Assembly (NCBI GenBank): GCA_964480705.1 | Contig: CAYZPC010000004.1 | Span: forward strand, 387 to 64,386 | DNA: 64,000 bases | Origin: an uncultured archaeon | GTDB lineage: Archaea > Iainarchaeota > Iainarchaeia > Iainarchaeales > VGJJ01 | Direction of reading: 5' to 3' | Part shown: one piece after another, positions 8,795 to 26,951 of the stretch | Layout of the letters: each line of letters opens with the position of its first letter | Numbering within the stretch: the first letter of the stretch is position 1 | Position numbers and translations under genes: made by a program | Notes under the pieces: model-generated | What the model saw: the letters and a program-made list of their open reading frames with translations, nothing else | What the model was told of the DNA's origin: nothing | Database searches by the model: none

Positions 8795-9376
8795 TTACAT
8801 GAACTGTTCATACGTTGCTGCGTTGAAACGGTAGAGTGCGCGCTTCAATTTTTTTCCATCAAACCGATATTTTTTGAAAACAAATGATTTGTCTCCATAG
8901 TATTTGAAAAAACCGTGATTTACACTCGGGTCCAGTAGGAGCGTTTTACCATTCACGTCCGTCATCACCACGGCGTGCGTGCGCAAGTCTTCCATCTCCA
9001 TGACATACACCATTGCTTTCTCATCACCCATTGCAAACAGTGCGGTGCACACGAGCACAGCTAAGTCTTCATCATCCGACACTTTGTGCGCGAGAATATC
9101 GGTGGGTGTGAGCCAGAAATTGATATTCAACTCATTCGGAGTGTAGCGGATTTCCTGCGTCACAAATTCAAACAATTGCTGTGCCGTAAACAAATAATCT
9201 TTTTCATACACAAATGTTTCAGGCTTGAATTTGGCCACGAGGCTTTGCACGCTCAAATCGTCCGGATTGATGAGGGCTTTAATCTCACCCACGGTGCGCT
9301 GCTCTTTCTGGTTGATAATGTCGGCATACTTGTCGAGCAGCATCTTGTAAAAAACAAGTTTATTGTCGGATTTCAT
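8795..9376 (-). CDS. transglutaminase-like (Cys-His-Asp papain-fold) superfamily protein
   Basis: 193 aa with a candidate catalytic triad in the order and spacing of the transglutaminase-like fold: VLVCTALFAMGD … THAVVMTD … LLLDPS. Confidence 0.45.
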   Translation of the reverse strand: MKSDNKLVFYKMLLDKYADIINQKEQRTVGEIKALINPDDLSVQSLVAKFKPETFVYEKDYLFTAQQLFEFVTQEIRYTPNELNINFWLTPTDILAHKVSDDEDLAVLVCTALFAMGDEKAMVYVMEMEDLRTHAVVMTDVNGKTLLLDPSVNHGFFKYYGDKSFVFKKYRFDGKKLKRALYRFNAATYEQFM

Positions 9377-9462: not shown

Positions 9463-9867
9463 ATGCACTCCCGCGCCCAAGTTGGACTCGAATACTTGGT
9501 TTTCACCGCATTCCTCCTGCTCATGTCCGCACTCCTTTTTGCGTACGCGTATTCCAGCTACACCAATACCATTCAGGTTGTTCAAGCCCAATCCGCCGTG
9601 GATGCCCTCGCATCCGGAATTGACTTTGTGTACGCCAAAGGCCCCGGCAATGCGGTGGTGATTGATGTTAAACTTCCCGTTGGCCTCACTGAATTCCGCG
9701 TCGACCAAAATGTGGTGCGCGTCACCCTATCTCACTACGGCTCCACGTCCACGCTCTTTGCATTCACCAAAGCACAAATCGATCCAAACTATTTGTATTT
9801 CCAGGAAGGACAATACTCCCTCCGCGTGGCCATGGGTGATGCGAACGCGAGCGTGACCAATGTATGA
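9463..9867 (+). CDS. type IV pilin-like protein with a class III signal peptide (Q at +1)
   Basis: MHSRA|QVGLEYLVFTAFLLLMSALLF: short basic N-terminus, a G/A–Q cleavage-site motif, then a hydrophobic helix; first gene of a translationally coupled operon. Confidence 0.65.
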   Translation: MHSRAQVGLEYLVFTAFLLLMSALLFAYAYSSYTNTIQVVQAQSAVDALASGIDFVYAKGPGNAVVIDVKLPVGLTEFRVDQNVVRVTLSHYGSTSTLFAFTKAQIDPNYLYFQEGQYSLRVAMGDANASVTNV

Positions 9868-11582
9868 TGACCTTTTTGCAAGCAAAAAGCTCAACCAAAA
9901 AAAGCTTTTTAGAAAAAAGTTTGATCAAAAAGGCTCATCAAAAGCCAACGCGGGGATTTGCAAAGCAAATCCCCAGTAGTTGTCTGCCGACGCGCGGGGG
10001 CGGAACCCCGCGAGGGCAGGTATCCACTGAAATGCTTCTCGCCGTGCTCATGGTTCTCTTCATTTTTCTCATCGTTCTCCTTTTCATTGAACAAACCAAA
10101 GCCGATGCGCTGCGCAATCAGCAAAATGTACAAGAAGATGAAGTCTGCGCCAAACTCACCACGATTATTACCTACATGAGTTCCAATCCCCCCTACACGG
10201 AAACTATTTTTGAATTACGTTTAGATACGAATGTCATTAATGGAAAAATTTTTGTGGGCGATTCATTTTGTGGATTTTTAGGGCGCGCGCAAAACGTACA
10301 ATTGTATCCGGGAAAAGTCAAAGCATTTGATGTGAATGGGGTGGTAGTGCTCACGAATGATACTAACTATTCTCCACTCACTCCTCCGAGTGGTCCGCCC
10401 AACTCCGGTTCCAATCAGAGCGGTGGCATTTTGCTCTTAATTGATGACCAAAACAACACGTGGTCGAGTGAAGTACAATCCGATGATGCATTGTACGCAG
10501 CATCTGAAGATGACGCAAGTGAAGATCCGGATTGGGTTGAATTTCGCTTCACTAACTTAGGTTTGACGCAAGCCAATGTCATTAATGACGTGCGCTTCCT
10601 CGCTAAACATTTTGAATCCAGCCACTTGGGATTAAACGGAAACAAAAACCGCGTGCAATGCTGGGATGGCGCCGCGTGGACAGACATTGAAGCCTACACT
10701 CCCGTTTTCACAGAAACCTATTACCAATCCGGAAACCTCATCTCGTGTATTTCGGATTGGAATGCTGCCAACTCTGCCAAATTTAGAATGACGTATGAAC
10801 CCAATGGGGTGGGGGACACGATTTCAATTGATTACGGTCGCGTGGATGTAAATTATTCCCAAGTGGGTTCGCTCATTGATTTATGGGAACTCTCAACGGA
10901 CTTGCCGCAACCCGTTGATTTTCGCACGGACATCAACACGACCGCCAACACATTCGGTTGGAGTGTGGGAGATGACGGGTGGGATTGGCAGGCGAACACG
11001 TATGGAGGTTCACTGGCTGCTGTAGAATTTAACGCCGACCCCAATGCGGATGGAAATGCATCAGACTCTCGTGTTTCCACGGACAAACGCCTCGTCATAA
11101 AACTCGGCGGAGGAGTGAGCGGTGCTCCGGCAGACCCGGATGATAATTCTACCATTGGAATGGGCGCGAGCGGAGCCTATGGTGTGCAATTTGACTTGAA
11201 CGCCGACCAATGGACGCTCATTCAAGGGGGTTCTCAACTTCTCTTCACATTCACTTACACGATTGACGCGGACGCGGGGTGGGGAAATAGTTTAGATGCA
11301 GGAGAAGAAGGCTGGGTGAAAGTTCGCTTCACGGATGATGCCAACAATTCATTTTATTTGGGCAGCGACCTCGACCAAAATGTGGATGAAGATGCTACTA
11401 ATGAAATTTGGTGGAGTTATCAACCAACTGACGACACGGGATTTTTCTATGAAGATGTGTCTGCGTACGCTTCGGGCGCGGGAACATATTACATTGACAT
11501 TGGTGGCGGTCTCTCGGATTGGGATAATATTCGTGAAGGACTGGGAATCTATATAGACAACATCAACCTGGTGGTGATCTAA
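9864..11582 (+). CDS. large (572 aa) pilin-like protein with an internal class III signal motif
   Basis: ATGA start/stop overlap with the upstream gene; motif PRG|QVSTEMLLAVLMVLFIFLIVLLF lies 55 aa from the only upstream ATG; the rest is a Thr/Asn/Asp/Gly-rich β-type extracellular region. Confidence 0.5.
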   Translation: MMTFLQAKSSTKKSFLEKSLIKKAHQKPTRGFAKQIPSSCLPTRGGGTPRGQVSTEMLLAVLMVLFIFLIVLLFIEQTKADALRNQQNVQEDEVCAKLTTIITYMSSNPPYTETIFELRLDTNVINGKIFVGDSFCGFLGRAQNVQLYPGKVKAFDVNGVVVLTNDTNYSPLTPPSGPPNSGSNQSGGILLLIDDQNNTWSSEVQSDDALYAASEDDASEDPDWVEFRFTNLGLTQANVINDVRFLAKHFESSHLGLNGNKNRVQCWDGAAWTDIEAYTPVFTETYYQSGNLISCISDWNAANSAKFRMTYEPNGVGDTISIDYGRVDVNYSQVGSLIDLWELSTDLPQPVDFRTDINTTANTFGWSVGDDGWDWQANTYGGSLAAVEFNADPNADGNASDSRVSTDKRLVIKLGGGVSGAPADPDDNSTIGMGASGAYGVQFDLNADQWTLIQGGSQLLFTFTYTIDADAGWGNSLDAGEEGWVKVRFTDDANNSFYLGSDLDQNVDEDATNEIWWSYQPTDDTGFFYEDVSAYASGAGTYYIDIGGGLSDWDNIREGLGIYIDNINLVVI

Positions 11583-11583
11583 T

Positions 11584-12738
11584 ATGGATGCTCCCCGCGC
11601 TGCGATTCCAACACGCTTCGATTTGAAATGGCTCATTGGTCCATTTGCTATTATTCTAGCCGCCGCGCTCATCGCATTCTATCTTCCCACTATTCCTTCT
11701 TCCACGAACGCGCCGGTGACTCCGCTCGAACAGCCGGTGCTGGTGGACATCCCCATTGATGTTGACGCGGCCAAATTAGAAGCCGCGGCACAGTGTTCGC
11801 TTTCTTTCTCGTGTGACCAAGTCGATTGTTTGGAAAAAGTCCTCACGCACATTGATTCGGCAACCGTTTCCATTGACGCGGTGCTGCGCACGCCCGCTCC
11901 CAAAGTATTGCGCGACCATCTTCGACTTGCTATCAAACGAGGCGTGCGCGTGCAACTGGTTCTCGATCCCACTCTCAACCCTAAATTTTATTTACAGGAC
12001 GCTCACGTCCGCGTCAAACAAGTCAGCCGATTTGTAGCCACCAATTTCATGATTATTGACTCATCCATTGTCGTGCACGGCACCGACCCTCGAACGTATG
12101 CGGCTTCTCCCGATGTGATTAGTGTTTCATGCTCTGAGTTAGAACGCGAACCGTATTTAGTTTTGTTCAACCGCGTCTGGCAGGAAGAAAGCAACCCCTT
12201 TGTTTCAGAATCCAATCAAGAAGAAATTGTCCCCGATTCGGCATTAAGTTCTCCGAGCGGAGATGTTTGCACTGAATCCGCGTGCGGTAATGACACGTAC
12301 ACGTGCGTGGGCACCACGAAAGTGTATCAGGATTATTTCTGCGACTCGGGCGCGTGTGCATATCAAATTATTCCACTCGTGTATAGTTCTGACTGCGGAT
12401 ACACCAACCCTGGCTTTGATCCGAATGGAGATCCACTCATTATTATTACGGAAACAGAAGTGGACGAAGGACAAATTGCCAATGAATTCATTGAATTCAC
12501 TGCTCTCAAGCCCGTTGAATTGACAGGATTTACTCTCTTGAGAAATAATAACACGCTCATCACATTCACGGAAGCATTTATTCTCAATGGCGCCGCGCGC
12601 GTGTACACGGGACCGGGTACCACAACTACTACGGTGGTGTATCTCGACCAGTCCTCTCCATTATGGAATGTTTCAGGCACCACCGCCACGCTGCTCAACC
12701 CCAATCAATTTGTGGTGGCGGAGAGAACATTCGACTGA
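11584..12738 (+). CDS. membrane-anchored protein with a degenerate PLD-like (HKD-lacking) domain and a C-terminal lamin-tail-like domain
   Basis: N-terminal TM (LIGPFAIILAAALIAFYL); PLD-fold-like segment RGVRVQLVLDP…RFVATNFMIIDSSIVVHGT with the catalytic H and K replaced (A, N); C-terminus NEFIEFTALKPVELTGFTLL… resembles LTD. Confidence 0.5.
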   Translation: MDAPRAAIPTRFDLKWLIGPFAIILAAALIAFYLPTIPSSTNAPVTPLEQPVLVDIPIDVDAAKLEAAAQCSLSFSCDQVDCLEKVLTHIDSATVSIDAVLRTPAPKVLRDHLRLAIKRGVRVQLVLDPTLNPKFYLQDAHVRVKQVSRFVATNFMIIDSSIVVHGTDPRTYAASPDVISVSCSELEREPYLVLFNRVWQEESNPFVSESNQEEIVPDSALSSPSGDVCTESACGNDTYTCVGTTKVYQDYFCDSGACAYQIIPLVYSSDCGYTNPGFDPNGDPLIIITETEVDEGQIANEFIEFTALKPVELTGFTLLRNNNTLITFTEAFILNGAARVYTGPGTTTTTVVYLDQSSPLWNVSGTTATLLNPNQFVVAERTFD

Positions 12739-12747
12739 GGTCTCGGC

Positions 12748-13266
12748 ATGAAACCCGCACGCACTTTTTCTCACTCCTGTTCGCGCGCCCAAGCCACGCT
12801 TCCAGATATTCTCATGGCAACCATTCTTTTTCTTCTCATTTTAGTGGGCATTCTCACCTATTCTCAAAACACTCAAACGGCGGCACAAGACACAGTGGGG
12901 AGACAGCGCCTCGACGGTGTCACATCAACCATCGCCGAATTCATTATCAAAAACCCCGGCACCCCCTCCAATTGGGAGTTGCTCAATGACATTAACGCAG
13001 TCACTCAATTCGGTCTCGCCCAAAAGGACCGGGTGTTGGATTCGCAAAAAGTAGTAGCATTCATTAATTACTCCAACCTCGACTATACTGCCGTAAAATC
13101 CCGACTCAATATTCCTGGGTATGAATTTTACGTCCAACTTACCGGGGGAACGACACTCGATGCGGGACAATATCCTCCCGCCGACAAACCCGTGAGTGTG
13201 GTGCAGCGCCTTGTGACAATTAATGGAATTGAAACCACGTTCAAACTGATGGTGTATGAACCATAA
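12748..13266 (+). CDS. type IV pilin-like protein (class III signal peptide)
   Basis: MKPARTFSHSCSRA|QATLPDILMATILFLLILVGILTY. Confidence 0.6.
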   Translation: MKPARTFSHSCSRAQATLPDILMATILFLLILVGILTYSQNTQTAAQDTVGRQRLDGVTSTIAEFIIKNPGTPSNWELLNDINAVTQFGLAQKDRVLDSQKVVAFINYSNLDYTAVKSRLNIPGYEFYVQLTGGTTLDAGQYPPADKPVSVVQRLVTINGIETTFKLMVYEP

Positions 13267-16200
13267 TTTTTTTGAAAAAAAATCCCGCGCATTCGCGTTC
13301 AGCGCAGACGTCGTCCTCGCACTCATCCTCGTTACCAGCTTGTTTGTTTTTCTCTCCGCTCCCACTCAACCGGCGGCAAAGCTAGAAGAACGCCGCGTCG
13401 CCGACCAGTATGTGGATGACTTGTTTGTAGCACTCGACCACTCCGGTTTTATGTCACACGAATTAGATGTGAATGGGTATTCCATCGCCACTCTTCAAAA
13501 TGTGCACACGCGCGCAACATCACTTTTGCCCTCCAATTATTCGGCGTATCTCACCCTCACGCGTTATCCAGTGGATGTAAACTCCTGCCGCTCCGGCCAA
13601 GATTTCCAATCGTGTTTTCCCGATGCAAACGTTGCTTCTCTTTCCTATGGAACGGCACTCTCTCCTACTGCTGAATTTGTTCACGGCCGCCGCGTCTTTT
13701 TACAACAACAACCCGCGTCGCAGTGCAGCGCCTCTCCATCCGCCGCATCCTCCAATTGGCCCTTCGCTCTTTTTCCGGCGCAAGAACCTTACACCGCGTA
13801 TTTTTCCCACGATGTCAACCTAACATTTGATGTAAATGTTTCTCCCTCCGGTCCCCTCACGTGTGACCAAAATATTACTATTTCTTTGCAAATTTCTGGA
13901 AACACGGGCGCGCGAAAACCATTAGACATGGTCCTCGTTTTCGACCGCTCGGGAAGTATGTCGTGGGATGGACAAGAAGACACGACTGATGCATTTGGAA
14001 TCGCATTGTCTTCTAATGCCGCATTTATCGCAGACAGCACCTCGGGTTTGCGCGACATCAACATCATTAATCCTGGTTTGCCCAACCTACTTGGAACCTA
14101 CAACTCTCCCGGCACCGCGCGCGACGTGGATGTGAGCGGCAACTACGCTTATCTTGCGGACGGGACATCCGGTTTACGAATCGTAAACGTTTCAACGCTC
14201 ACCGCACCCACTTCCGTTGCCACCCTCGATGTGGGGGGCGATTCATACGGGGTTTTCACGCAAGACACACTCACGTATGTTGCCACGTATGGCACCAGCA
14301 CCACCGACCAAAGCAACATTGTCACTGCCAATCGAGATTTAGAAATTGGACAAAGCGCCTCCAACGCCACAGCTGCACAGTCGTTCCAACCCTCGCTTGA
14401 TTTTATTACCGGTGCAACAGTACACGTGCGCCGCGTGGGAAATCCCTCTGGAAATCTCTCGGTGAATCTCCGCTCTTCTCTCTCCGGAGCAGACTTAGCC
14501 ACCGCCACCATCACACCCGCGAGTCTCACGACATCCTACCAAGATATTGAGGTCACATTTCCCTCACTCGCGCAAGTAACGGGCGGCTCCACCTACTATC
14601 TCGTCCTCACCACCACTGCAAACAATTCATCCAACTATTACCAGTGGGGCGGCCGCGGCACAAATGGGTATGCGAATGGAACAGCTTATCAAAATAGTAC
14701 CAACCAAAGCCACGACATGCGTTTCCGCACGCACTACATTCCTGGTCTTATCAAAATTGACACTACCACCAAAAATTCTCCGAGCATTTTAGGAGCAGCC
14801 ACCCTCACGGCACCCTGGCGCGTGTTGGTGGAAAATGATTACGCATACGTTGCAGATGGTTCTGCCGGCATGCGCGTGTTTGATGTTTCAGCAGACACGC
14901 CCGTGGAAATAGGTTCATACAATACTCCCGGAACCGCCTACGATGTGACACTCGATGGAACATATGCCATTGTCTCAGATGGAACATCCGGCATTCGCAT
15001 CCTGGATGTTTCAACACCATCTTCTCCTACTTCGATTGCCACCTACAACACTCCCGGCACGGCCTACGCTGCGCGCGTGGACGCTGGCATTGCGTACGTG
15101 GCGGATGGAAGCTCAATACAAGTGATTGATATTTCCACTCCATCATCGCCCACCTTCTTGCGCTCGTACGCCACTCCCTACAATTACCGTGACCTCGAAA
15201 TCCAAAATGGGTGGGGATTTATTGCGGTGGATTCAAGCATCGAAGGATTAATGACATTCAACCTGTCTCTGGGTCCCAAAATTAATCAAGCCCAAGTAGC
15301 AGCTCAAACATTTGTTGATTTTAATGCGTGGGATTCAAACAATGATCAACTCGGCCTAGTCAGCTACTCCAGCTCAGCCACGACCGACCAAACACTCACC
15401 GGAAATTATGCACTTATCCGCTCCGACATTAATGCGCTTGTCGCAAGCGGGGGAACTGCCACTGGAGATGGAATCAACGCCGCCACGACTGAACTTATTA
15501 GTGCACGCCACAATCCTTCCGCGCTCAAATTCCAAATCCTCATGTCAGATGGTTTAACCAACTCGGGAGCGAACAGCGCAACTGCTGCCATTACTGCTGC
15601 CAACAATGGTATAGTGATTTACACCATTGGTTTCGGTGCAGAAGCCGATGTCGCTGAACTCAACAATATTGCCACCATCACGGGAGGAAAATATTATTCT
15701 GCATTAGACCAGAATGCGCTCATTGATGTGTACAATCTCATTGCCCAAGACATTCAGCTCATTGCCACGGACGCAAACGTGGTTGCTAACATTCCCACGG
15801 ATGTAAATATTGTGAGCGATGGAAATGGCTCCTTCATCAATGGAAATCTCATCTTTGATATCAACACGCAGGAACCCCAACCCTGGACCGTTGATTATAC
15901 GATTATTATTCCCTGCACATCTCAACTTGCATGCACCTCCACCCTCATTTCCGTTCCAAGTCCGGGAACCCAATTCCAATACGTGGACGCGAATGGAAAC
16001 ACCATTGTCATTGACTGGAACGTGTTCGAAACACAATCCTTCAATTATTACGATTTGAACCTTGAAATCGTTTCAGGAGATTTAGTCAGCACCAACAACA
16101 CTGACCTCACGGTAAAAGTATCCAGCGTTGGAAACCTAGACACGAATGCCACTTCCGTTTCATTCTACCAAAATGATCCCTCGTTTGGAAACCTACTCGC

Positions 16201-16426
16201 AACCAGTTCGGTTCCCGCACTCTGCGGCGCACTCAATCCCGGGTGCGTGACTTCGGATTATTTGTTCACGAGCAACGTGTCTGCGGAAGGAGAATTATGG
16301 GCTGTTGTGAATCCTAATCAGACGATTCCAGAATGTACCTACAATGATCGCGACGTGCTATTCTGCTATCAAAATCCCTCCACACAATTTTTCACGCTGG
16401 ATTATTGGGTGTGGTTGAATGAGTGA
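13256..16426 (+). CDS. giant pilin-like adhesin: class III signal peptide + vWA (MIDAS) domain interrupted by an LVIVD-repeat β-propeller
   Basis: N-terminus KKSRAFAFSADVVLALILVTSLFVFL; MIDAS motif LDMVLVFDRSGSMSWDG at ~aa 225; ~470-aa insertion with repeated YAYLADGTSGLRIVNVS / YAIVSDGTSGIRILDVSTPSSP units (LVIVD-like); remainder of the vWA fold (LGLVSYSS…TATGDGINAA…ILMSDGLTNSG…VIYTIGFG). Confidence 0.75.
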   Translation: MNHNFFEKKSRAFAFSADVVLALILVTSLFVFLSAPTQPAAKLEERRVADQYVDDLFVALDHSGFMSHELDVNGYSIATLQNVHTRATSLLPSNYSAYLTLTRYPVDVNSCRSGQDFQSCFPDANVASLSYGTALSPTAEFVHGRRVFLQQQPASQCSASPSAASSNWPFALFPAQEPYTAYFSHDVNLTFDVNVSPSGPLTCDQNITISLQISGNTGARKPLDMVLVFDRSGSMSWDGQEDTTDAFGIALSSNAAFIADSTSGLRDINIINPGLPNLLGTYNSPGTARDVDVSGNYAYLADGTSGLRIVNVSTLTAPTSVATLDVGGDSYGVFTQDTLTYVATYGTSTTDQSNIVTANRDLEIGQSASNATAAQSFQPSLDFITGATVHVRRVGNPSGNLSVNLRSSLSGADLATATITPASLTTSYQDIEVTFPSLAQVTGGSTYYLVLTTTANNSSNYYQWGGRGTNGYANGTAYQNSTNQSHDMRFRTHYIPGLIKIDTTTKNSPSILGAATLTAPWRVLVENDYAYVADGSAGMRVFDVSADTPVEIGSYNTPGTAYDVTLDGTYAIVSDGTSGIRILDVSTPSSPTSIATYNTPGTAYAARVDAGIAYVADGSSIQVIDISTPSSPTFLRSYATPYNYRDLEIQNGWGFIAVDSSIEGLMTFNLSLGPKINQAQVAAQTFVDFNAWDSNNDQLGLVSYSSSATTDQTLTGNYALIRSDINALVASGGTATGDGINAATTELISARHNPSALKFQILMSDGLTNSGANSATAAITAANNGIVIYTIGFGAEADVAELNNIATITGGKYYSALDQNALIDVYNLIAQDIQLIATDANVVANIPTDVNIVSDGNGSFINGNLIFDINTQEPQPWTVDYTIIIPCTSQLACTSTLISVPSPGTQFQYVDANGNTIVIDWNVFETQSFNYYDLNLEIVSGDLVSTNNTDLTVKVSSVGNLDTNATSVSFYQNDPSFGNLLATSSVPALCGALNPGCVTSDYLFTSNVSAEGELWAVVNPNQTIPECTYNDRDVLFCYQNPSTQFFTLDYWVWLNE

Positions 16427-17429
16427 ACGCTCCACTTTGCGCGGACAACGAGGAGTACTATTCACCTTTCTCACTTTCCTCTTCATCAGCGCAGTCGTAG
16501 GATTAATTGTCTTCAACACTAACCTCTCAAACCGCACATCCACTTCCACCGTTGAAATTTCCGTTCTCAACGCCATCAACGCCAAATACGATGACATTAC
16601 CGATGACATTATCACGCTCGACCACCCCATTGGAATTCCATCCATTCACCAGCGCATTCTGCCCTTCACTCATTCCACGGACAAAAACACCATTACTTTT
16701 CTCCAAACCCTCCCCATTGCCAGCGGAAAACTTTCTCTCTATTACGATTTGATTAACGCCTACGCTATTTTCGTCCGCGACCAAAACACATCCCGAACAT
16801 ACGATGGAGTGGATGTTGACATTGACGTACCCAAACCCCCTGCATGGGGAGGCGCTGCCCAATCTGCAGGATTCAACATTCTTCCCCAGTGTGTACAATA
16901 TCGCATTCTGGATACGAACACGATTAATTTTTCCAGCGACAGTACGATTGGATGCGAAACCGATTTCTCAATGCGCACCCACGTTTCGCGCATCGACATC
17001 AACATCTACCTCCCCACAACCACTGATGATTACAACGGCGCCACATGCTCATTCAATGGAACATTCTCCTGCCCGCACGAGGATTTCAACGCGCAGAATG
17101 GTCCATTTATTTCCATATTATTTTTCGATTCCAATTGTACAAACTGCACTCTCTCAACTAGTGACAAAAACATCTCCGGACACTTTGACCCGGACATCGT
17201 GAGCACGATAACCTATGCGTGTACGTCCGGAAACTGCAACTCTCAACCGCTCACATTCACTTTCTCCGATGGTCTCGAAATTAATCACGGCGGAACGGCC
17301 GCGACTCTCTCGATGGGCGTTTCATTTACGGAAAGTATACGCACGTTCTACTACCAAGATGCTAATTATTCCGTCAGCAAGAGTGGATTTGATACGATTA
17401 AAAGCAACGTCGTGGTGTTCCCCCAATGA
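16419..17429 (+). CDS. type IV pilin-like protein (class III signal peptide), 336 aa
   Basis: MSERSTLRG|QRGVLFTFLTFLFISAVVGLIVF; overlaps the upstream stop. Confidence 0.6.
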   Translation: MSERSTLRGQRGVLFTFLTFLFISAVVGLIVFNTNLSNRTSTSTVEISVLNAINAKYDDITDDIITLDHPIGIPSIHQRILPFTHSTDKNTITFLQTLPIASGKLSLYYDLINAYAIFVRDQNTSRTYDGVDVDIDVPKPPAWGGAAQSAGFNILPQCVQYRILDTNTINFSSDSTIGCETDFSMRTHVSRIDINIYLPTTTDDYNGATCSFNGTFSCPHEDFNAQNGPFISILFFDSNCTNCTLSTSDKNISGHFDPDIVSTITYACTSGNCNSQPLTFTFSDGLEINHGGTAATLSMGVSFTESIRTFYYQDANYSVSKSGFDTIKSNVVVFPQ

Positions 17430-18556
17430 GCCCCGGCGATGCTGCTACTATTCTAATCGCCCTCATCGTGACGGGTGCCATTGCATACTTTTTTGTCTTG
17501 CCCTCTCTGCAAACAAATGCTTCTTCCGCATCGGCTGAATTATTCGTCGAAGCTCCCTCCACCACACTCCCCAATCAATCCATCAACGTCACCATTGCCG
17601 CTAAATACGCCGAAGGAAAAACCATTCAAGCCACATCTGATGGACAAGCCAAAACATTTTCATGCGCCACCACGCCGTGCATTTTCTCCACCACGTTTTC
17701 CTATGCTCAACCCGGAGAAAAAACCATTTTAGTGCAATTAGATTCGCTCACGGAAACACGCACGATTAACGTGACGGCAGTCTCCAAACGCTGTCTCGAT
17801 GGCACCGTAGACGGAACGTGTTCCGCGCCCCCATTTTTTTGCGAAAACGCTCAACTGGTTTCCAATTGCACTCGCTGCGGCTGCCCCTCGGGAGAAGAAT
17901 GCATCTCCAACACGTGCACAAAACCCCCACTCACCTTTTCCATTCCTCTTGTTACCATTCCCGAAAATGTTTACACCACTGCCGTGGCGGCGGTGAATTA
18001 TTCTATTCAAAACACTTCCTCATTTGACGCGGATGGATTATTTTTACTCGTTGCCCAATCGTACTCTTCTTCGGAACAACTCCTTGATGAGCGCGCGCAG
18101 CAGATTCAACTCCACGATTTAGCGCCGGGAACAATTCACACGGGAACCGTGTCCATTTTGTTTCCGCTCAACACAACCAGTTTGCGCTTGCGCTTGTACG
18201 ACAACCCTTCTTCTTACCCTTCATCTACTCTCCTCGCCGAATCCGCTCGAGAAAATGTTCGCGTCACCACCGACACGACACCGCCCCTTCCCCCCACGCA
18301 ACTGGCTTCATCTTCCTCTGCCGGAGAAACACTTCTAACATGGACCGCATCCCCTTCCTCGGATGTAAAAAAATATATCATCTTTCAAGAAAACTTTTCC
18401 AACGGGGGATTCACCACCTATTCTACCGCGGGAGAAACCACCTCCACCCAGTTTTCTATTTCTTCTCCATCCTCTCCACTCGCCTACGTGGTTCGTGCCA
18501 TAGATGGTGCGGGAAACCAGAGTGAACCCACCTCTCCTGTGGTCGTTTCCTCTTAG
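17426..18556 (+). CDS. membrane-anchored protein with a Cys-rich segment and a C-terminal fibronectin type III-like domain
   Basis: N-terminal TM (ATILIALIVTGAIAYFFVL); Cys cluster CLDGTVDGTCSAPPFFCENAQLVSNCTRCGCPSGEECISNTC; FN3-like C-terminus (PPTQLASSSSAGETLLTWTASPSSDVKKYIIFQE…YVVRAIDGAGNQSEP); ATGA overlap with the upstream gene. Confidence 0.55.
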   Translation: MSPGDAATILIALIVTGAIAYFFVLPSLQTNASSASAELFVEAPSTTLPNQSINVTIAAKYAEGKTIQATSDGQAKTFSCATTPCIFSTTFSYAQPGEKTILVQLDSLTETRTINVTAVSKRCLDGTVDGTCSAPPFFCENAQLVSNCTRCGCPSGEECISNTCTKPPLTFSIPLVTIPENVYTTAVAAVNYSIQNTSSFDADGLFLLVAQSYSSSEQLLDERAQQIQLHDLAPGTIHTGTVSILFPLNTTSLRLRLYDNPSSYPSSTLLAESARENVRVTTDTTPPLPPTQLASSSSAGETLLTWTASPSSDVKKYIIFQENFSNGGFTTYSTAGETTSTQFSISSPSSPLAYVVRAIDGAGNQSEPTSPVVVSS

Positions 18557-18585
18557 GTTAAATACTCTAACTCATTTTTTCGGGC

Positions 18586-19197
18586 ATGGCCGACGCTCCC
18601 CCTGCCAGACCTGGATTATTTGCCGGGCTCGCCAAAATTCTTCATCTGCACCAGCTGCCGCAAGCCGCTCCAGGAACTAAAACTATTTCACCTAAAGGAG
18701 ATAGTGTGGTGATGGTGCCTCCCGTGCGCGCACCCGCGTCCTCTGCGAACACTTCCAAAACGCTTCCCACCCGTGCACCCATTCCTTCCCCCGTTTCTTC
18801 ACCCGCAAGCACGATGACTGCTCCGGTGTCGCGTCCAACTTCCCCTACACAACCAGCAGCTCCTCGTGCTCTCCCACACGCGACTGTTCCATCGGCAGGA
18901 TTATCCTCCATGGGAAACACGCACCCCAAGTGGGCCGTTTCACACGAAGTGAATCCTCCGCACACGCACGCACAACCCGGCGTATCAAAAGGAGTCATCG
19001 TCACCGATTACGATCGCATTCTCGATTTAGTAAAAGCCCGCCACCCCATCAAGTTGGATGAAATCGCGCGCCTTCTCTCTCTCAAAGAAGAATTAGTCGC
19101 ACAAGAATTGCAAACACTAGAAGACAATGGTTTAGTTGACGTGAAATATCCTGCATTTGGAGAACCACTCATCTATTTCAAAACACCCGAGGCCTGA
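18586..19197 (+). CDS. Pro/Ser/Thr-rich protein with a C-terminal winged-helix-like domain
   Basis: Low-complexity P/S/T-rich N-terminal 140 aa; C-terminus DRILDLVKARHPIKLDEIARLLSLKEELVAQELQTLEDNGLVDV reads as HTH/wHTH; sits immediately before the ATPase gene. Confidence 0.4.
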   Translation: MADAPPARPGLFAGLAKILHLHQLPQAAPGTKTISPKGDSVVMVPPVRAPASSANTSKTLPTRAPIPSPVSSPASTMTAPVSRPTSPTQPAAPRALPHATVPSAGLSSMGNTHPKWAVSHEVNPPHTHAQPGVSKGVIVTDYDRILDLVKARHPIKLDEIARLLSLKEELVAQELQTLEDNGLVDVKYPAFGEPLIYFKTPEA

Positions 19198-19200
19198 CGC

Positions 19201-20691
19201 ATGACATTCCAACGCATCGAAACGTATCCCATTCAAGCGGACATCACGGTGAGTGTGGACATTGGAAAAGATGACGTGGAGTTCGTCAAACGATACATTT
19301 TGCACACGCCCGAGTTTGGACTCGGAACGCGAGCGATGCTAAACGATTTGAAATCACGCATCGTGACAGAAGTAAACATCTCCTCCGAAAAAATGCTCGA
19401 TGCCAAATTTGTCGCCGAACTCAAAAAAACGTTTCACGAAAAAGCAGCCGTGCTCCTCGCGCGCGAACTCCCCGAACTCACGCAAGACGCGCGAGATCAA
19501 CTCTCCTCTGTCATTCTTAATGAAATGGTGGGACTGGGTCCCATTGAATTTCTCCTCGCGGATGGAAACCTCGAAGAAATTGTCGTGAACGCGGCCACAG
19601 AACCTGTGTGGGTGTATCACAAAAAACATGGCTGGTTGAAAACAAACATCATCATTACTCCAGAAGCCGAGATTCAAAATTACGCTAGCATCATTGCCCG
19701 CCGCGTTGGAAAACAAGTCACGGTGCTCAATCCCCTTCTCGATGCACACTTAGTCACAGGAGACCGTGCCAACTCCACACTCTTTCCAATTTCCTCGCGC
19801 GGAAACACGATTACTATTCGTCGTTTTCGCCGCGACCCGTGGACGGTAACCGATTTCATTGACACCAAAACATCCAACGCGGCATCCATGGCCATGCTCT
19901 GGCTCGCCATGGAATACGAACTAAACATCATTGTGTCCGGTGGAACTGGATCGGGAAAAACAACTCTCCTCAACGTCATGCTCCCATTCATACAGCCTAA
20001 CCAGCGTGTGCTAACCATTGAAGACACGCGCGAATTACAATTGCCTGACTTCCTGCACTGGGTCCCCATGACCACGCGCGAACCCAACTCCGAAGGAAAG
20101 GGCGGCGTGGGCATGCTTGATTTGCTCGTGAACTCCCTGCGAATGCGACCGGACCGAATCATTGTAGGTGAAATTCGTCGTCAGAGGGAAGCTGAAGTCA
20201 TGTTTGAAGCCATGCACACTGGACACTCGGTTTACGCGACGGTGCACGCCAACACCGCCGATGAAACCATTACGCGATTAGTAAGTCCGCCGATTGAAAT
20301 TCCCCCCTCTCTCTTAGAGGCCGTGCACTTGAACGTGGTCATGTTCCGTAATCGAAGATTAGGAGTGCGCCGTATCCTCCAACTTGCCGAATTCGTTCCT
20401 CAAAAAGCGGGAAGCGAAGGAAAAATACAAATCAAACCAAACATTTTGTACCGCTGGAGAGCATCCACGGACACTATTGAAAAATACGCGGAAAGTATTC
20501 GATTGTTTGATGAATTAGGCTTACATACGGGATACTCGGCGCAGGAACTCACCCAAAATTTATCTGAAAAACAACGCATCCTCGAATGGTTAGGCAAACA
20601 AAAAATACGCGACATTAATGAAGTGGGAAAAGTCATGGCAGAATATTATGCGGAACCCGAAACCGTGTTGAAACGCGCAGGAATCAAGTGA
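19201..20691 (+). CDS. type IV filament assembly ATPase (FlaI/TadA/VirB11 family)
   Basis: Walker A GGTGSGKTT; Asp box TIEDTRELQL; Walker B/His box region RPDRIIVGEIR…; 496 aa, typical for archaeal secretion-superfamily ATPases. Confidence 0.85.
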   Translation: MTFQRIETYPIQADITVSVDIGKDDVEFVKRYILHTPEFGLGTRAMLNDLKSRIVTEVNISSEKMLDAKFVAELKKTFHEKAAVLLARELPELTQDARDQLSSVILNEMVGLGPIEFLLADGNLEEIVVNAATEPVWVYHKKHGWLKTNIIITPEAEIQNYASIIARRVGKQVTVLNPLLDAHLVTGDRANSTLFPISSRGNTITIRRFRRDPWTVTDFIDTKTSNAASMAMLWLAMEYELNIIVSGGTGSGKTTLLNVMLPFIQPNQRVLTIEDTRELQLPDFLHWVPMTTREPNSEGKGGVGMLDLLVNSLRMRPDRIIVGEIRRQREAEVMFEAMHTGHSVYATVHANTADETITRLVSPPIEIPPSLLEAVHLNVVMFRNRRLGVRRILQLAEFVPQKAGSEGKIQIKPNILYRWRASTDTIEKYAESIRLFDELGLHTGYSAQELTQNLSEKQRILEWLGKQKIRDINEVGKVMAEYYAEPETVLKRAGIK

Positions 20692-20801
20692 GGTCTGCGC
20701 ATGATTGCACACTTAAACATCGGCCTTTTTTGCTTCGCAAAAAACCCCGGGGAAAATTTTGCATGTGTTTTGCATTACCTGTTCAAGTGGAGTGATCGTT
20801 C

Positions 20802-21695
20802 ATGATTGCACACTTTAACATGCCCCTGAATGTGCTGCCCATGCCCATGCTCCGATGGGCGAGCAAACATTTGCTTGGACTCGGCACCCAATTTGGAAAA
20901 CTCATGCCGCTCTCCGACAGCGACATGAAAAAAGCCGAAATACCCATGTCGGCAAAAGAATACTCCACCATGAGCCTCGTGATTGTTATTTTTTATTTCA
21001 TCTTTTTCGGATTCCTATTTTTTGTCATGACATTCCGATTATTTTCAAGTCTGGACATTCTTCTCCCATTAGGAGTTAGCTTTCTTTTTTCTATTTTAGT
21101 ATTAGTCCAACTCATCACATTTCCCATTATTCGCGTCACCAAAAAAGTCCGAGACTTAGACCGAAATCTCGTGTTTGCCCTGCGCACCATTCTCGTACAG
21201 CTTCGCTCGGGAGTAAGTTTGTTTGAATCCATGAAACTAGTGGGAGAAGGAAACTACGGCGCCGTGTCACGAGAATTCAAACGAGCCGTTGACCAAATTT
21301 CAACGGGAACGATTCAAGAAATTGCCCTCGAACGCATTGCAGAGTACAATCCGAGCATATTTTTTAGACGAGCCATCTGGCAAATCGTAAATGGAATGCG
21401 CGCCGGAGCAGACATTACAGTCGTATTGGGAGAAAGTGTGGACACTCTCACGGAAGCACAATCCATTCAAATTCGCAATTATGAAAGTCAAATGAAAATA
21501 CTCTCACTCGTTTACATGATGCTCGGCGTCATCGTTCCCGCGCTGGGAATCACCTTCCTCATCGTGCTCTCCTCTTTTCCCCAAATCAAAATCACCGAAC
21601 TCTATTTTTGGATTCTCCTCGCGGGAGTGAGCATCGCCCAATTCATGTATTTAGGTATTGTCAAAAGCAAGCGCCCGACGCTGCTGGGTGATTAA
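20802..21695 (+). CDS. pilus platform membrane protein, single T2SSF domain (TadB/EpdJ-like)
   Basis: 297 aa with TM helices and a GspF-type motif ALRTILVQLRSGVSLFESMKLV. Confidence 0.7.
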   Translation: MIAHFNMPLNVLPMPMLRWASKHLLGLGTQFGKLMPLSDSDMKKAEIPMSAKEYSTMSLVIVIFYFIFFGFLFFVMTFRLFSSLDILLPLGVSFLFSILVLVQLITFPIIRVTKKVRDLDRNLVFALRTILVQLRSGVSLFESMKLVGEGNYGAVSREFKRAVDQISTGTIQEIALERIAEYNPSIFFRRAIWQIVNGMRAGADITVVLGESVDTLTEAQSIQIRNYESQMKILSLVYMMLGVIVPALGITFLIVLSSFPQIKITELYFWILLAGVSIAQFMYLGIVKSKRPTLLGD

Positions 21696-21697
21696 AC

Positions 21698-22714
21698 ATG
21701 CCCTCCTCGCGCAACGATTTCATTTTTCTCCGCGCCATTATCGAAGCGTTTGAAACAGAGTTCGCCTACTTGGGAGTGCGAATCTCCTCGCGAAAATTCG
21801 TTCTCAACATGCTCATGTTTGCCTTCGCCGCGAGCGTGGGCTCCACTATTTTTACCAGCCTCGTGCTGCGCTGGCCATACTTTTTAGTGGTAGTGGGATT
21901 TTTCGCCACATTCATCCTCGTCATGGGGGGAATCTACATGTTTTTGGACTTGCAAGCCGAATCCCGCGGACGACAAGTCGAACGCGTTCTCCCCGATGCA
22001 TTGCAACTCATCGCCAGCAACATCAAATCCGGACTCACCACGGAACGCGCGCTCCTCGTTTCCGCGCGGCCGGAATTTGGTCCGCTTGAAACAGAGTTCA
22101 AACGCATCTCCACCCGAATACTATCGGGTGTTCCCATCGAGAAAGCCATCATGGAAGTGCCCAAACACATCAAATCAACTCTTGTTGAACGCACGATGTG
22201 GCTGCTCGCGCGCGGAATATCTTCCGGAGGAGAAATTGCGGATTTATTATTACAACTCTCCCGCAACCTTCGCTCCCAACTCACTCTGCAAAGCGAAGCC
22301 CGCGCATCTATCTCCATTTATGTTATTTTGATATTCTTCTCCGCCGCGTTTGGAGGGCCTGCACTTTATGCCGTGTCAAGTTTCATTGTCGAAGTCATGA
22401 GCTCGCAAATAGGAAACCAGCCCCAAATTGATCCAGGTGCGTTAGCCGCCGCGGGCGCACGATCATCTTCATTAGGCGCATTTGTGGGAGGAAGCTCTGG
22501 AATCATTTCCCCTGAATTCATCACCATGTTCGCGCAAATCATGTTATTTGTGGGAGGAATATTTGCCTCGCTCATTTTAGGGGCGATAGCCACCGGAAAA
22601 GAAAAAGATGGAATCAAATATTTGCCATTCGTCATGCTCTGCTCGTTCGGATTATTTTTCCTCATACGATTTGTGTTACACTCCGCATTTGGAACACTCT
22701 TGTTAGGCGGATAA
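21698..22714 (+). CDS. pilus platform membrane protein, single T2SSF domain (TadC/EpdK-like)
   Basis: 338 aa; LPDALQLIASNIKSGLTTERALLV…; polytopic membrane protein; adjacent to the TadB-like gene. Confidence 0.7.
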   Translation: MPSSRNDFIFLRAIIEAFETEFAYLGVRISSRKFVLNMLMFAFAASVGSTIFTSLVLRWPYFLVVVGFFATFILVMGGIYMFLDLQAESRGRQVERVLPDALQLIASNIKSGLTTERALLVSARPEFGPLETEFKRISTRILSGVPIEKAIMEVPKHIKSTLVERTMWLLARGISSGGEIADLLLQLSRNLRSQLTLQSEARASISIYVILIFFSAAFGGPALYAVSSFIVEVMSSQIGNQPQIDPGALAAAGARSSSLGAFVGGSSGIISPEFITMFAQIMLFVGGIFASLILGAIATGKEKDGIKYLPFVMLCSFGLFFLIRFVLHSAFGTLLLGG

Positions 22715-22760
22715 ATCGTTCGTGTGGCGCACACGAAATTATTATTGTGTAAATGGTACA

Positions 22761-23474
22761 CTACACTTGCGAGAATAATTCTTCTTTGGGAAGGACTTCA
22801 ATTCCGTGCGCAGTGATTCGTACGGGGCGGAGTTTGTCGCTGATTTTAGTATCGCGCATTTTGAGAATACCAATACTTCTCACAAAACGATTTTCCACGC
22901 GCGTGTGGTACAAGAGAACAACTCCATCCGCCACATATTCTTCCAATCCAAACAATCCTTCGTGCTGTCCCGTGGTGGATTCGTTGGTGACTATCGTGGT
23001 GACGTTTAATTTTTTCAACATTTTTCCCAAACTCAGGATGCGTTTTCGTGCATCTAATTCGCGTTCAAAATACAAATGAAAAATGACACCGGGGTCGATG
23101 ATGAGCCGCGATGCTTTGTGTTTCGCAACTAAATCCTCAATACTGTCTCTCAACTTGTCAAAATCATACAACTCAACGGTTTGCATGATTATTTTTCCTT
23201 TCTTAATCATCCCTTCCAAATCCCACCCAAAAATAGCGGCCGTCTCCATAAGCTCTTCAGGCTTTTCTTCCAGTGAAATAAACACGCCCGTTTCATTGTG
23301 TTTAGCCGCTCCATTGTACAAATATTGCAGGCAAAAAATGGTTTTTCCCGCTCCGGGGTCTCCCGTTAATACGACTAAATTTCCTTTCGGAATACCCCCC
23401 TCAATCAACTCGTCTAAACCCATGACTTCGGTCGGGGTGCGTTGCACGATGGCGTTGCCCATGACACTTTTCAC
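22761..23474 (-). CDS. KaiC/RecA-superfamily ATPase, FlaH-like
   Basis: Walker A LVVLTGDPGAGKTIF; Walker B-like ASRLIIDPG; ~230 aa as in FlaH; the true start may be the internal MGLDELIEGGIP (23423). Confidence 0.7.
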   Translation of the reverse strand: MKSVMGNAIVQRTPTEVMGLDELIEGGIPKGNLVVLTGDPGAGKTIFCLQYLYNGAAKHNETGVFISLEEKPEELMETAAIFGWDLEGMIKKGKIIMQTVELYDFDKLRDSIEDLVAKHKASRLIIDPGVIFHLYFERELDARKRILSLGKMLKKLNVTTIVTNESTTGQHEGLFGLEEYVADGVVLLYHTRVENRFVRSIGILKMRDTKISDKLRPVRITAHGIEVLPKEELFSQV

Positions 23475-23552
23475 ATTTCCTTAGATATATACCCATCGGG
23501 TGTGCAATTGCAGGCACTTTAACACACCCGCTTTCGCCGGAAACATGAACGT

Positions 23553-23561
23553 TTATATATC
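23553..23561 (+). promoter_or_regulatory. TATA box-like element of the major pilin gene
   Basis: TTTATATAT ~60 nt upstream of the ATG at 23618; SD AAGGAGGAG at 23601–23609 in the predicted 5'UTR. Confidence 0.4.
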
Positions 23562-23617
23562 GCGATTTGTTACCCTATCCAGCCAATTACCTTTCTTTGC
23601 AAAGGAGGAGAAAAAAT

Positions 23618-24079
23618 ATGAATTTCAAGAAACGAGGACAATCGGCACTCGAATACTTGATGACCTACGGCTGGGCCTTGGTCGTTATTGTAATTGCAGT
23701 TGCTGCATTAGTTGTATTAATTAATCCGAGTACGATTCAAGGAAATCAATGTGACGCTAAAATTGGACCGTTTACAGTTAGTCAAAGTCAAGTGACTGCT
23801 GCAACAACGCAGTTAGTTTTAGTTAATCAAACCGGACAGGGCGTGACATTAACTGATGTTAACGTTAGTGGTACGCACGGTGGTTCAACAACATACAATG
23901 ACACAGGTTCAACGTTTACTTCTGGAACGGTATTAAGCCCTAACCAGACAGTTACTGTGGTTGTTAATCAAACACCTGACATTAACACTGGATCATACAA
24001 TCTAACATATCAGTTGACGTATGATGCTGGTCAGTTACAAGGTGTTACCGCTTCAGGAAGCTGCCGCGGTACAATATAA
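23618..24079 (+). CDS. major type IV pilin (class III signal peptide, Q+1; DUF361-like)
   Basis: MNFKKRG|QSALEYLMTYGWALVVIVIAVAALVVLI (textbook archaeal prepilin N-terminus); 153 aa, Thr/Asn/Gly-rich β domain; own promoter, strong SD, downstream terminator. Confidence 0.8.
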   Translation: MNFKKRGQSALEYLMTYGWALVVIVIAVAALVVLINPSTIQGNQCDAKIGPFTVSQSQVTAATTQLVLVNQTGQGVTLTDVNVSGTHGGSTTYNDTGSTFTSGTVLSPNQTVTVVVNQTPDINTGSYNLTYQLTYDAGQLQGVTASGSCRGTI

Positions 24080-24094
24080 TTTGATTCATTTTCA

Positions 24095-24135
24095 GGGTTG
24101 TGCTCCGAAAGGAGCCACCCTTCTTTTTTTATTCT
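24095..24135 (+). terminator. hairpin + T-tract terminator after the major pilin gene
   Basis: GGGTTGTGCTCC-GAAA-GGAGCCACCC stem-loop followed by TTCTTTTTTTATTCT. Confidence 0.5.
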
Positions 24136-24155
24136 CGGTTTAACTCGTTTCTCGC

Positions 24156-24824
24156 ATGCCCAACTCATCTTTTCCCTCGCGCGCGGCAGTATCCAATTCT
24201 CCCCCTGAAAAATCGGCGCTCTCCGATGAACAACTCTCCGAACTTTTACGCCCGGGAAAAGATTTTGAAAATGCGCTCGGAGCATCCATCAAAACGCTTC
24301 CAGCAGGAACCACTAACCTTCTCATCGTGCGCCTCAAAGATTATGCCACCACGCCGCGCGCACTCTTAACCTATTTTGCGCAGGAAAAAATGCCCGGCGT
24401 ATATGTGAGCGTGAACAAACCCTACATGGACATTGTGAAAACCCTCCCAAACAAAGAAACATCCATTCCTCAAACACAATTCGTGGATGCGATCACTGCC
24501 CTTACCGGAAGAGGGGTTGAAGACAATCAAGTTGTCACGTTCATTGACTCTCCACTTGCGCTCGTGGAACTCAACCTCGCCATCTCGGATCGAATGAAAG
24601 GACTCGTGAGCAATCAAAAATTCTTAATACTCGATTCCGTGTCCACGCTCCTCGTGTATAATACTCCTCAATCCGTCGAAAAATTTTGCCACACGGTGAT
24701 TGCCAAAAACCGCGCGGAAAATGTGCTAGGATTATTCCTCATGATTGAATCCGAAGACCATCGCGGGGTAGTGGAAACGCTCGCGCAGTTTGTGGACAAT
24801 GTCATTACCGTCAAACCGCAATAA
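24156..24824 (+). CDS. degenerate KaiC/RecA-like protein lacking a P-loop
   Basis: KaiC-like topology (…FLILDSVSTLLV… Walker-B-like; LGLFLMIESEDHRGVVETLAQFVDNVI) but no GxxGxGKT motif. Confidence 0.4.
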   Translation: MPNSSFPSRAAVSNSPPEKSALSDEQLSELLRPGKDFENALGASIKTLPAGTTNLLIVRLKDYATTPRALLTYFAQEKMPGVYVSVNKPYMDIVKTLPNKETSIPQTQFVDAITALTGRGVEDNQVVTFIDSPLALVELNLAISDRMKGLVSNQKFLILDSVSTLLVYNTPQSVEKFCHTVIAKNRAENVLGLFLMIESEDHRGVVETLAQFVDNVITVKPQ

Positions 24825-26822: not shown

Positions 26823-26843
26823 TGGAATATATTCAACTCGTGT

Positions 26844-26890: not shown

Positions 26891-26951
26891 TTTGAAAAGT
26901 CAAAGATTTATTAATGCGAGGAGTATTCTCGTAGCGTTGGAGGAGTAAGAT

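Follow-up and report, generated by a model that had tools for sequence, protein, structure and literature searches.

Which member of the type IV filament (TFF) superfamily is encoded by a dense cluster of pilus-assembly genes in the genome of an uncultured archaeon of the Iainarchaeota, and what such an appendage would serve for, is the question raised by this locus. The cluster occupies positions 9463-24824 (Table 1) of a 64,000-nucleotide stretch of contig CAYZPC010000004.1, hereafter the window. To our knowledge, the Iainarchaeota, a phylum of the DPANN archaea, have no cultured representative, and it is debated whether they are free-living or host-associated. It was found that the locus is complete apart from a prepilin peptidase, with an assembly ATPase, two platform proteins and six pilins, and that it very probably encodes an adhesive archaeal type IV pilus (T4P) of the Epd-like or 'clade 2' kind. 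The role of this pilus is likely attachment to surfaces, glycans, or partner or host cells.

The assembly machinery was recognized from its domain families. The ATPase matched PF00437 (T2SSE) with 137 bits against a cut-off of 24.9, which places it among the secretion-family ATPases, as an initial annotation of the same DNA had done in naming it a FlaI/TadA ATPase. However, this finer label did not stand, as both equivalog cut-offs were missed, with 267.7 bits (cut-off 550) for the NCBIfam FlaI/ArlI model NF058587 and 201.9 bits (cut-off 373) for the TadA/CpaF model TIGR03819; a partial match to the BasE model was also obtained (144 bits, cut-off 1000). Among PDB structures, afGspE (2OAP, 230 bits over the full length) ranked before CpaF (185 bits) and FlaI (170 bits) and, judged by these sequence scores, the ATPase is nearer to the archaeal pilus-type afGspE and the bacterial CpaF than to FlaI. 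The two single-T2SSF platform proteins annotated downstream were confirmed by PF00482 (cut-off 25.2), platform protein 1 scoring 52.8 bits with about four transmembrane (TM) segments and platform protein 2 scoring 51.3 bits with about five, the latter also giving weak NCBIfam matches to UpsF and ArlJ. Sequence searches of solved structures returned no match for either protein. Since each gene encodes one T2SSF domain and the two are paralogous (26% identity, E 1e-10), the platform is split, as in Tad and Epd systems.

The pilins were identified by a FlaFind-like rule run on every one of the window's 180 open reading frames (ORFs) of 80 aa or more, and orthologue comparisons drew on sequences from 80 related loci, with up to about 50 loci per motif. 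Eight hits were obtained, namely the six pilin genes and two antisense shadow ORFs; shadow ORFs aside, class III motifs in the window are restricted to the pilus locus. The six class III N-termini of the initial annotation were therefore recovered by the screen, and orthologues from as many as about 50 loci keep them. With the predicted cleavage site written as a slash, the motif of the 153-aa pilin, [KR]G/Q[SA]ALEYLMTYGWA, is near-invariant from Iainarchaeota to Aenigmarchaeota, Woesearchaeota and Altiarchaeota, and that of the 134-aa pilin, [KR][GA]/QxxxEY followed by a hydrophobic stretch, is shared by about 30 orthologues, with E at +5 and Y at +6 in the window. The corresponding sites are [KR][GA]/QVSxE in the 572-aa pilin, [KR]G/Qxxx(x)D in the 172-aa pilin (D at +6 in the window), [KR][GA]/F[AV]FSxD, with F at +1, in the 1056-aa pilin and [KR]G/[VI][LIF]F[TS] in the 336-aa pilin. 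The 172-aa pilin also matched DUF7287 (PF23958) at 27.1 bits against a cut-off of 27, over residues 12-169.

Glutamine at +1 was found in four of the six proteins (genes starting at 9463, 9864, 12748 and 23618) rather than in the five counted previously, because the most likely cut in the 336-aa protein, which reads RGQRG/VLFTF, follows the second RG. The proposal that these N-termini form an EppA-substrate signature was consequently not upheld, given this count and a score of only 10.2 bits (cut-off 23.7) for the DUF361/Class_IIIsignal hidden Markov model (HMM). The 336-aa pilin matched no Pfam or NCBIfam model and has no acidic residue at +5/+6, and D and E are absent from the first ten residues of its orthologues. 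In bacteria, cap subunits such as GspK and PilX are without the acidic +5/+6 residue and, by analogy, the 336-aa pilin is a candidate for capping the tip. The 376-aa and 384-aa proteins of the same operon were considered as extra class III substrates and rejected, as their orthologues begin with plain anchors and have no conserved site. In agreement with the initial annotation, the window yielded no prepilin peptidase: the A24 family is absent, and each polytopic ORF has either another Pfam assignment (Yip1, Rce1-like, M50B-like, DUF92, CarS, SecD/F) or none. A TM-based screen of the neighborhoods of the 80 related loci gave no candidate peptidase either.

The gene of the 153-aa major pilin is monocistronic, starting at ATG 23618 and not at TTG 23567, and has a TATA box (23552-23559) and a strong Shine-Dalgarno sequence (23604-23610) of its own and, 3' of the stop codon, a terminator-like hairpin with a T-run (24095-24130). 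This layout bears out the annotation of a separate major pilin gene, and the high expression proposed along with it fits the signals that can be read from the sequence. The AlphaFold2 (AF2) model, built with 47 homologues, has a mean predicted local distance difference test (pLDDT) score of 82 and consists of a helix that starts at the predicted +1 position (residues 7-35) and an eight-strand immunoglobulin (Ig)-like beta sandwich, a predicted fold that resembles archaeal pilins, archaellins and FlaF. Sequence searches of solved structures returned no match for this pilin. Of 1.84 billion cluster representatives (50% identity), its profile retrieved 6845 at E <= 1e-3. The family, characterized by the QSALEYLMTYGWA N-terminus, is not covered by any Pfam or NCBIfam model, and the haloarchaeal PilA N-terminus PF07790 gave a single weak match among 47 family members. 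In the databases, the members are labeled 'hypothetical' or 'class III signal peptide-containing'. Because the family is very abundant and has no Pfam model, a curated major-pilin family would improve the annotation of DPANN genomes.

Two of the pilins encoded in the operon are modular. In the AF2 model of the 572-aa pilin (mean pLDDT 83), residues 1-48 are disordered, a helix spanning residues 52-107 begins at the predicted +1 position, and a small beta head is followed by two beta domains (185-333 and 373-571), both modeled as jelly-rolls. Foldseek matched this model to SGBP-B, CBM22, CBM16, CBM4 and neuropilin b1b2 with E values from 4e-8 to 1e-4, and the predicted jelly-rolls thus resemble carbohydrate-binding modules (CBMs) and galactose-binding-like domains. 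The only other in-frame starts within the leader of this pilin (9864-10016) are TTG at codons 5 and 20; its ATG overlaps the upstream stop codon (ATGA), and a 93%-identical relative (P0121) shares its length. The 1056-aa pilin matched the Pfam LVIVD (117 bits) and VWA (65.8 bits) models. Its von Willebrand factor A (vWA) domain is interrupted, the first strand and the metal ion-dependent adhesion site (MIDAS; DRSGSM, residue 230) being parted from the remainder (677-825) by a nested LVIVD propeller. The MIDAS is intact and is conserved in about 35 orthologues, in which the length of the insertion varies.

Additional proteins of the locus may act on the assembly machinery. The protein described in the initial annotation as FlaH-like proved to be a single-domain KaiC-family ATPase, with 200.5 bits for PF06745 against 42.5 bits (cut-off 215) for the NCBIfam ArlH model NF052589. 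In PDB it matched KaiC CI domains (E 1e-56), and no chain named FlaH or ArlH occurs among its 47 matches at E <= 1e-5. Its Walker A (GDPGAGKT), EE pair (SLEE) and Walker B (RLIIDP) motifs are all intact, residues G34, G37, K40, E65 and D123 do not vary among 25 orthologues, and the likely start is ATG 23462, public assemblies calling a protein of 233 aa. The gene is encoded on the minus strand and points away from the major pilin gene, which corrects the earlier reading, and its product is presumed to be a regulator. In most Iainarchaeota loci, the KaiC gene is directly followed by that of the DUF7504 protein (PF24336, 49.1 bits). Alignment of the DUF7504 and KaiC profiles with hhalign gave a probability of 76.6% and an E value of 2.2e-5, spanning the region from just past Walker A to the C-terminus; direct BLASTP between the two was negative, and sequence searches of solved structures returned no match for the DUF7504 protein. 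From these profile data, DUF7504 is read as a putative degenerate, P-loop-less KaiC/RecA-like partner of the KaiC ATPase. A literature search on DUF7504 and DUF7287 found nothing; we take both to be families derived from haloarchaeal proteins. In most relatives, the KaiC and DUF7504 genes stand in tandem, co-oriented and several kb from the platform genes (L010, L013, L040, L049, L051 and L058 were compared), and in the clade of the window they are separated by the major pilin gene, with the KaiC gene inverted. A local rearrangement has placed the pilin promoter beside the KaiC promoter in this clade.

The 203-aa protein, whose gene ends 3 nt before the ATPase gene, has a Pro-rich low-complexity N-terminal region and weak winged helix-turn-helix (wHTH) matches (HVO_A0114, MarR and others) at residues 144-187. 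A wHTH C-terminal domain encoded directly upstream of the ATPase gene was also found in Iainarchaeota, Woesearchaeota, Aenigmarchaeota and Nanoarchaeia loci. In the equivalents compared (L009-L063), a C-terminal wHTH of about 65 aa is kept, and the N-terminal part varies: it is Pro-rich and about 100 aa long in the window, and it reaches over 800 aa in other Iainarchaeota, where it is rich in Lys and Glu and coiled-coil-like. Such a variable N-terminal part joined to a kept wHTH points to a scaffold more than to a plain transcription factor, and the 203-aa protein could be a regulator or an ATPase-associated scaffold. The 384-aa protein gave Pfam matches under the cut-off to LTD (E 1.2e-5), the Ig-like lamin-tail domain, and to PLDc_2 (E 0.0076), and it is a clade-specific accessory confined to the eight closest loci (L001-L008). 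The 376-aa protein has an N-terminal anchor, its distant orthologues are lipoprotein-like, and its gene overlaps the upstream one by ATGA. Finally, in at least 20 related Iainarchaeota loci the DUF553 gene is a divergent, adjacent neighbor of the first pilin gene. Its product is without a signal peptide and contains what looks like a Cys/His/Asp set (VCTALFA ... RTHAVV ... LLLDPS). Transglutaminase-family peptidases have been associated with archaeal T4P (PMC4858521), and this protein is a possible accessory component of the pilus, perhaps for the processing or turnover of pilins.

Regarding gene layout, the locus comprises 14 ORFs and a 15th conserved neighbor just upstream, and 13 of the 15 genes lie on the plus strand, the KaiC gene and the upstream neighbor being on the minus strand. 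Every ORF named in the initial annotation was found where it had been placed. The genes from 9463 onward form a packed run with junctions of, in order, -4 (ATGA), +1, +9, -11, -8, -4 (ATGA), +29 and +3 nt. This run consists of eight ORFs (9463-19197) and the ATPase gene, and therefore the nine coupled genes previously assigned to the interval 9463-19197 included the ATPase gene as the ninth. A common regulatory motif 5' of 9463 and 24156 was considered and discarded, since it looks like the general promoter/leaderless-transcript layout of many window genes. The GC content of the locus (0.47-0.51) is near that of the rest of the window, which consists of archaeal housekeeping genes, for example those for an aIF5B-like GTPase, L7Ae, S6e, Kae1, CDP-archaeol synthase and SecD/F, and a PHROGs search for viral genes gave no meaningful match. 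An origin as a provirus or mobile island was rejected on these two grounds, and the pilus locus is native and chromosomal.

Table 1. Genes of the pilus locus and its conserved upstream neighbor, with positions in the window (slash, predicted cleavage site)
Feature	Coordinates	Strand	Basis
Transglutaminase-like cysteine peptidase-fold protein (DUF553)	8795..9376	-	PF04473, 27.9 bits (cut-off 20.5)
Minor pilin, 134 aa	9463..9867	+	Class III signal MHSRA/QVGLEY; motif screen
Modular minor pilin, 572 aa	9864..11582	+	RG/QVSTE; two jelly-rolls (AF2, Foldseek)
PLD-like + lamin-tail protein, 384 aa, N-terminal anchor	11584..12738	+	Sub-cut-off Pfam LTD, PLDc_2
Minor pilin, 172 aa, DUF7287	12748..13266	+	SRA/QATLPD; PF23958
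Large modular pilin/adhesin, 1056 aa	13256..16426	+	SRA/FAFSAD; LVIVD and VWA matches
Minor pilin, 336 aa	16419..17429	+	Conserved site RG/VLFTF
Anchored all-beta surface protein, 376 aa	17426..18556	+	Orthologue N-termini; weak Ig-like matches
Cytoplasmic winged-helix protein, 203 aa	18586..19197	+	Weak wHTH matches
Pilus assembly ATPase, 496 aa	19201..20691	+	PF00437
Platform protein 1, single T2SSF	20802..21695	+	PF00482
Platform protein 2, single T2SSF	21698..22714	+	PF00482
Single-domain KaiC-family ATPase	22761..23474	-	PF06745
Major pilin, 153 aa	23618..24079	+	KKRG/QSALEYLMTYGWA
DUF7504 protein	24156..24824	+	PF24336

Beyond the locus, three genes for secreted or anchored proteins of 210, 340 and 668 aa lie 3' of it (26190-30026, plus strand), with conservation across L001-L007. 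A YtkA-like/Ig-like domain, hints of coiled coil and a TM segment at the C-terminus were seen in the 668-aa protein, which shares with the 210-aa protein an 'AN-TTT-TW' start after a Sec-type signal; the three may be S-layer or envelope proteins tied to the pilus locus. On the other side, a gene at 1042-4800 (minus strand) encodes a 1252-aa large surface protein with a lipoprotein-like N-terminal signal (…GSGC) and no real Pfam match (FliD_N, E 0.015), and two tandem paralogous ORFs of 137 and 130 aa lie at 5149-5562 and 5630-6022 on the plus strand (…RP.G…FP…F.LEK…VR.IRFDL.G.T..RAR…).

The distribution of the locus was assessed from related loci. The ATPase has its nearest relatives (92%, 90% and lower identity) in metagenome-assembled genomes (MAGs) named Candidatus Iainarchaeum or Diapherotrites. 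The complete gene order, from the transglutaminase-like gene through five pilins with their accessory genes, the wHTH gene, the ATPase gene and the two platform genes to the KaiC, pilin and DUF7504 genes, is kept in eight close relatives (L001-L008). The pilin set together with the wHTH, ATPase, platform and major pilin genes is present in most Iainarchaeota loci fetched, and a core of ATPase, platform and pilin genes, often with a KaiC gene, occurs in other DPANN phyla. Because it is conserved in dozens of Iainarchaeota MAGs, the locus is typical of the lineage and not exceptional. Six contigs with Iainarchaeota-type loci (L018, L040, L044, L058, L060 and L072; ATPase 52-64% identical) belong to bins named Falkowbacteria, Chloroflexota/Chloroflexi, Thaumarchaeota or Methanosarcinales, and their presence there most likely reflects binning contamination, not horizontal transfer.

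Taken as an adhesive pilus, the locus suggests the following course of assembly. A prepilin peptidase encoded elsewhere in the genome would remove the short basic leaders from the six pilins. The ATPase, presumably hexameric, would then power a heterodimeric platform made of both single-T2SSF proteins, which would draw the pilins out of the membrane and polymerize them. The five operon-encoded minor pilins would assemble first, as a priming and tip complex capped by the 336-aa subunit, and the 153-aa pilin, presumably expressed separately and strongly, would form the shaft. At the tip or along the fiber, the two modular pilins may display their adhesion modules, that is, the lectin- or CBM-like jelly-rolls of one and the MIDAS-bearing vWA domain with the LVIVD propeller of the other. 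The KaiC ATPase, the DUF7504 protein and the wHTH protein may regulate or scaffold this assembly.

A more far-reaching proposal is that the minor-pilin operon is the archaeal counterpart of a bacterial tip complex, with a cap and two adhesion-module pilins that set the choice of partner or host, and that the KaiC ATPase and DUF7504 form a pilus-specific functional analogue of ArlH gating the ATPase. This proposal is tentative, and we regard it as less probable than its negation. If true, these genes would be the first determinants of host recognition in an uncultured DPANN phylum that are concrete and open to testing.

Several observations weigh against the assignment to an adhesive pilus. Processing depends on an unseen gene, because no peptidase was found in the window or in the 80 neighborhoods. 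The 51-aa leader of the 572-aa pilin is Lys-rich and atypical, its orthologues having leaders of 5-26 aa, and TM-scores are low for the CBM-like matches of this pilin, since it is a multidomain query. Similarly, the major-pilin fold matches pilins no better than it matches generic Ig-like domains, and the kinship of DUF7504 with KaiC rests on an hhalign probability of just 77%. Moreover, by its HMM and PDB scores the ATPase could belong either to Epd clade 1/System 1 or to clade 2.

The same genes could be read in other ways, of which a bindosome-like or type II secretion-like pseudopilus deserves the most attention. Such a short envelope-spanning assembly would capture glycans for uptake and have no long adhesive fiber, which would suit the CBM-like modules on the 572-aa class III protein and the partial BasE match of the ATPase; a recent preprint has indeed proposed 'functionalised' TFF machineries with class III signal peptide (SPIII) binding proteins (10.64898/2026.04.22.720090). 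However, the BasE score is far under its cut-off, no ABC transporter or solute-binding-protein fold was seen among the scanned ORFs of the locus and its immediate flanks, and the vWA/propeller module is typical of adhesins. Furthermore, a genuine filament is favored by the dedicated small pilin, which is DPANN-invariant and has strong expression signals of its own, and a pseudopilus is thus considered unlikely. DPANN archaea are often without nucleotide biosynthesis, and a competence-type pilus feeding DNA to a nucleotide-auxotrophic cell was also considered, in which the membrane-anchored PLD-like and lamin-tail protein of the operon would be an extracellular nuclease or DNA binder. An active nuclease was rejected, since the PLD-like domain is without the catalytic HxK residues in eight of eight orthologues of the 384-aa protein. 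The Pfam PLD match is moreover under the cut-off, the gene is limited to the closest clade and no ComEC-like channel was seen among the scanned ORFs of the locus and immediate flanks, which makes a DNA-uptake pilus quite improbable.

Least probable of all, and practically negligible, is a divergent archaellum in which the KaiC-like protein would act as FlaH/ArlH. It is true that the FlaI model is the top NCBIfam match of the ATPase by score (268 bits), that a KaiC-family ATPase is present and that the pilin fold is like those of archaellins and FlaF. On the other hand, the FlaI score reaches half of what the equivalog model requires, FlaI ranks after afGspE and CpaF in PDB, the score for ArlH is 42.5 bits against the 215 needed, the platform is split where ArlJ is a single two-domain protein, and the KaiC gene is divergent and outside the operon. 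No Pfam or NCBIfam match to archaellin (PF01917), ArlF/G or ArlC/D/E/X was obtained among the locus proteins. The archaellum was therefore rejected, the FlaI and ArlH cut-offs being missed and archaellins not being found at the locus.

An adhesive type IV pilus remains the preferred reading, and under it the locus supplies annotatable names for about 15 'hypothetical' genes per genome. The lectin-like and the vWA/propeller pilins are candidates for binding assays, for host identification by antibodies or fluorescence in situ hybridization (FISH) and for the interpretation of cryo-electron tomography (cryo-ET) data.

The relation of this locus to known systems can be described from several sides. 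With bacterial Tad/Flp pili it shares a platform of two single-T2SSF proteins, an ATPase matching CpaF (185 bits), a mature N-terminus of the G/xxxxEY type (QSALEY, QVGLEY) and a vWA-containing pseudopilin analogous to TadG. It differs from them in that the secretin RcpA, TadZ and TadD were unmatched among the scanned ORFs of the locus and flanks, the TadA HMM stayed below its cut-off, the major pilin is globular, unlike Flp, and the envelope and lineage are archaeal. Modular pilins have been demonstrated in the T4P of Streptococcus sanguinis, in which PilB carries a vWA domain and PilC a lectin module (PMC8179133, PMC9934059). The arrangement found here is similar: one subunit joins a class III N-terminus to a vWA domain, another joins such an N-terminus to a lectin-type beta-sandwich, and the pilus operon that encodes both also encodes other minor pilins. 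However, the machinery of S. sanguinis is type IVa pilus (T4aP)-like and the vWA domain described here holds a nested propeller, so that the likeness is architectural, with no sequence homology shown.

Among archaea, euryarchaeal clade 1 and clade 2 T4P with two tadC genes and adhesins have been described (Makarova et al. 2016, PMC4858521), together with PilA-type major pilins encoded outside the operon, minor pilin sets and KaiC-family ATPases (PMC4858521), and DPANN T4P islands were found to be rich in unannotated pilins (Makarova et al. 2019, PMC6393860). The clade 2 systems (Haloferax volcanii PilB3/PilC3 with PilA1-6, PilB4-type loci, Archaeoglobus afGspE) are matched by the present locus in its ATPase, whose best match over the full length is afGspE, in a globular-headed major pilin encoded apart from the assembly operon, in a minor pilin set with one member matching DUF7287, and in an associated KaiC-family ATPase, many clade 2 loci also having two tadC genes (PMC4858521). 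In contrast, the haloarchaeal PilA N-terminus (PF07790) is unmatched here except for the one weak match in 47. System 2 of the 2026 classification differs in having one platform gene and ATPases with N-terminal extensions, whereas here the platform is split and the ATPase has 496 aa.

The same classification defines 'System 1' (Epd) by a split platform and many pilins, reports it from DPANN (Sivabalasarma & Albers 2026, 10.64898/2026.04.22.720090) and adds an SPIII galactose-binding protein and adhesin-like proteins (10.64898/2026.04.22.720090). In common with this system in Methanococcus maripaludis and relatives, the locus has two platform genes beside one ATPase gene, a multigene operon with several class III pilins, mostly with Q at +1, a transglutaminase-family neighbor and a DPANN setting. 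It differs in its major pilin, which has an eight-strand Ig-like head where that of Epd (arCOG06620, Flp-like) is without a globular head, in having no EppA in the locus or window, where Epd has a 9-TM EppA often encoded in the locus, and in giving no DUF361 HMM match. The initial annotation was right in outline, as in setting the locus apart from the archaellum, and its view of the locus as unusual and unlike known loci was not supported, since split platforms, many pilins, KaiC-family ATPases and transglutaminase neighbors had already been described for Epd-like and clade 2 systems of archaea, DPANN among them. The ATPase may belong to clade 1 or to clade 2, and the locus fits the System 1 description save for its globular-headed major pilin and the absence of a cis-encoded EppA; it is a further example of the known Epd/Tad-like archaeal pili, and the known picture is unchanged.

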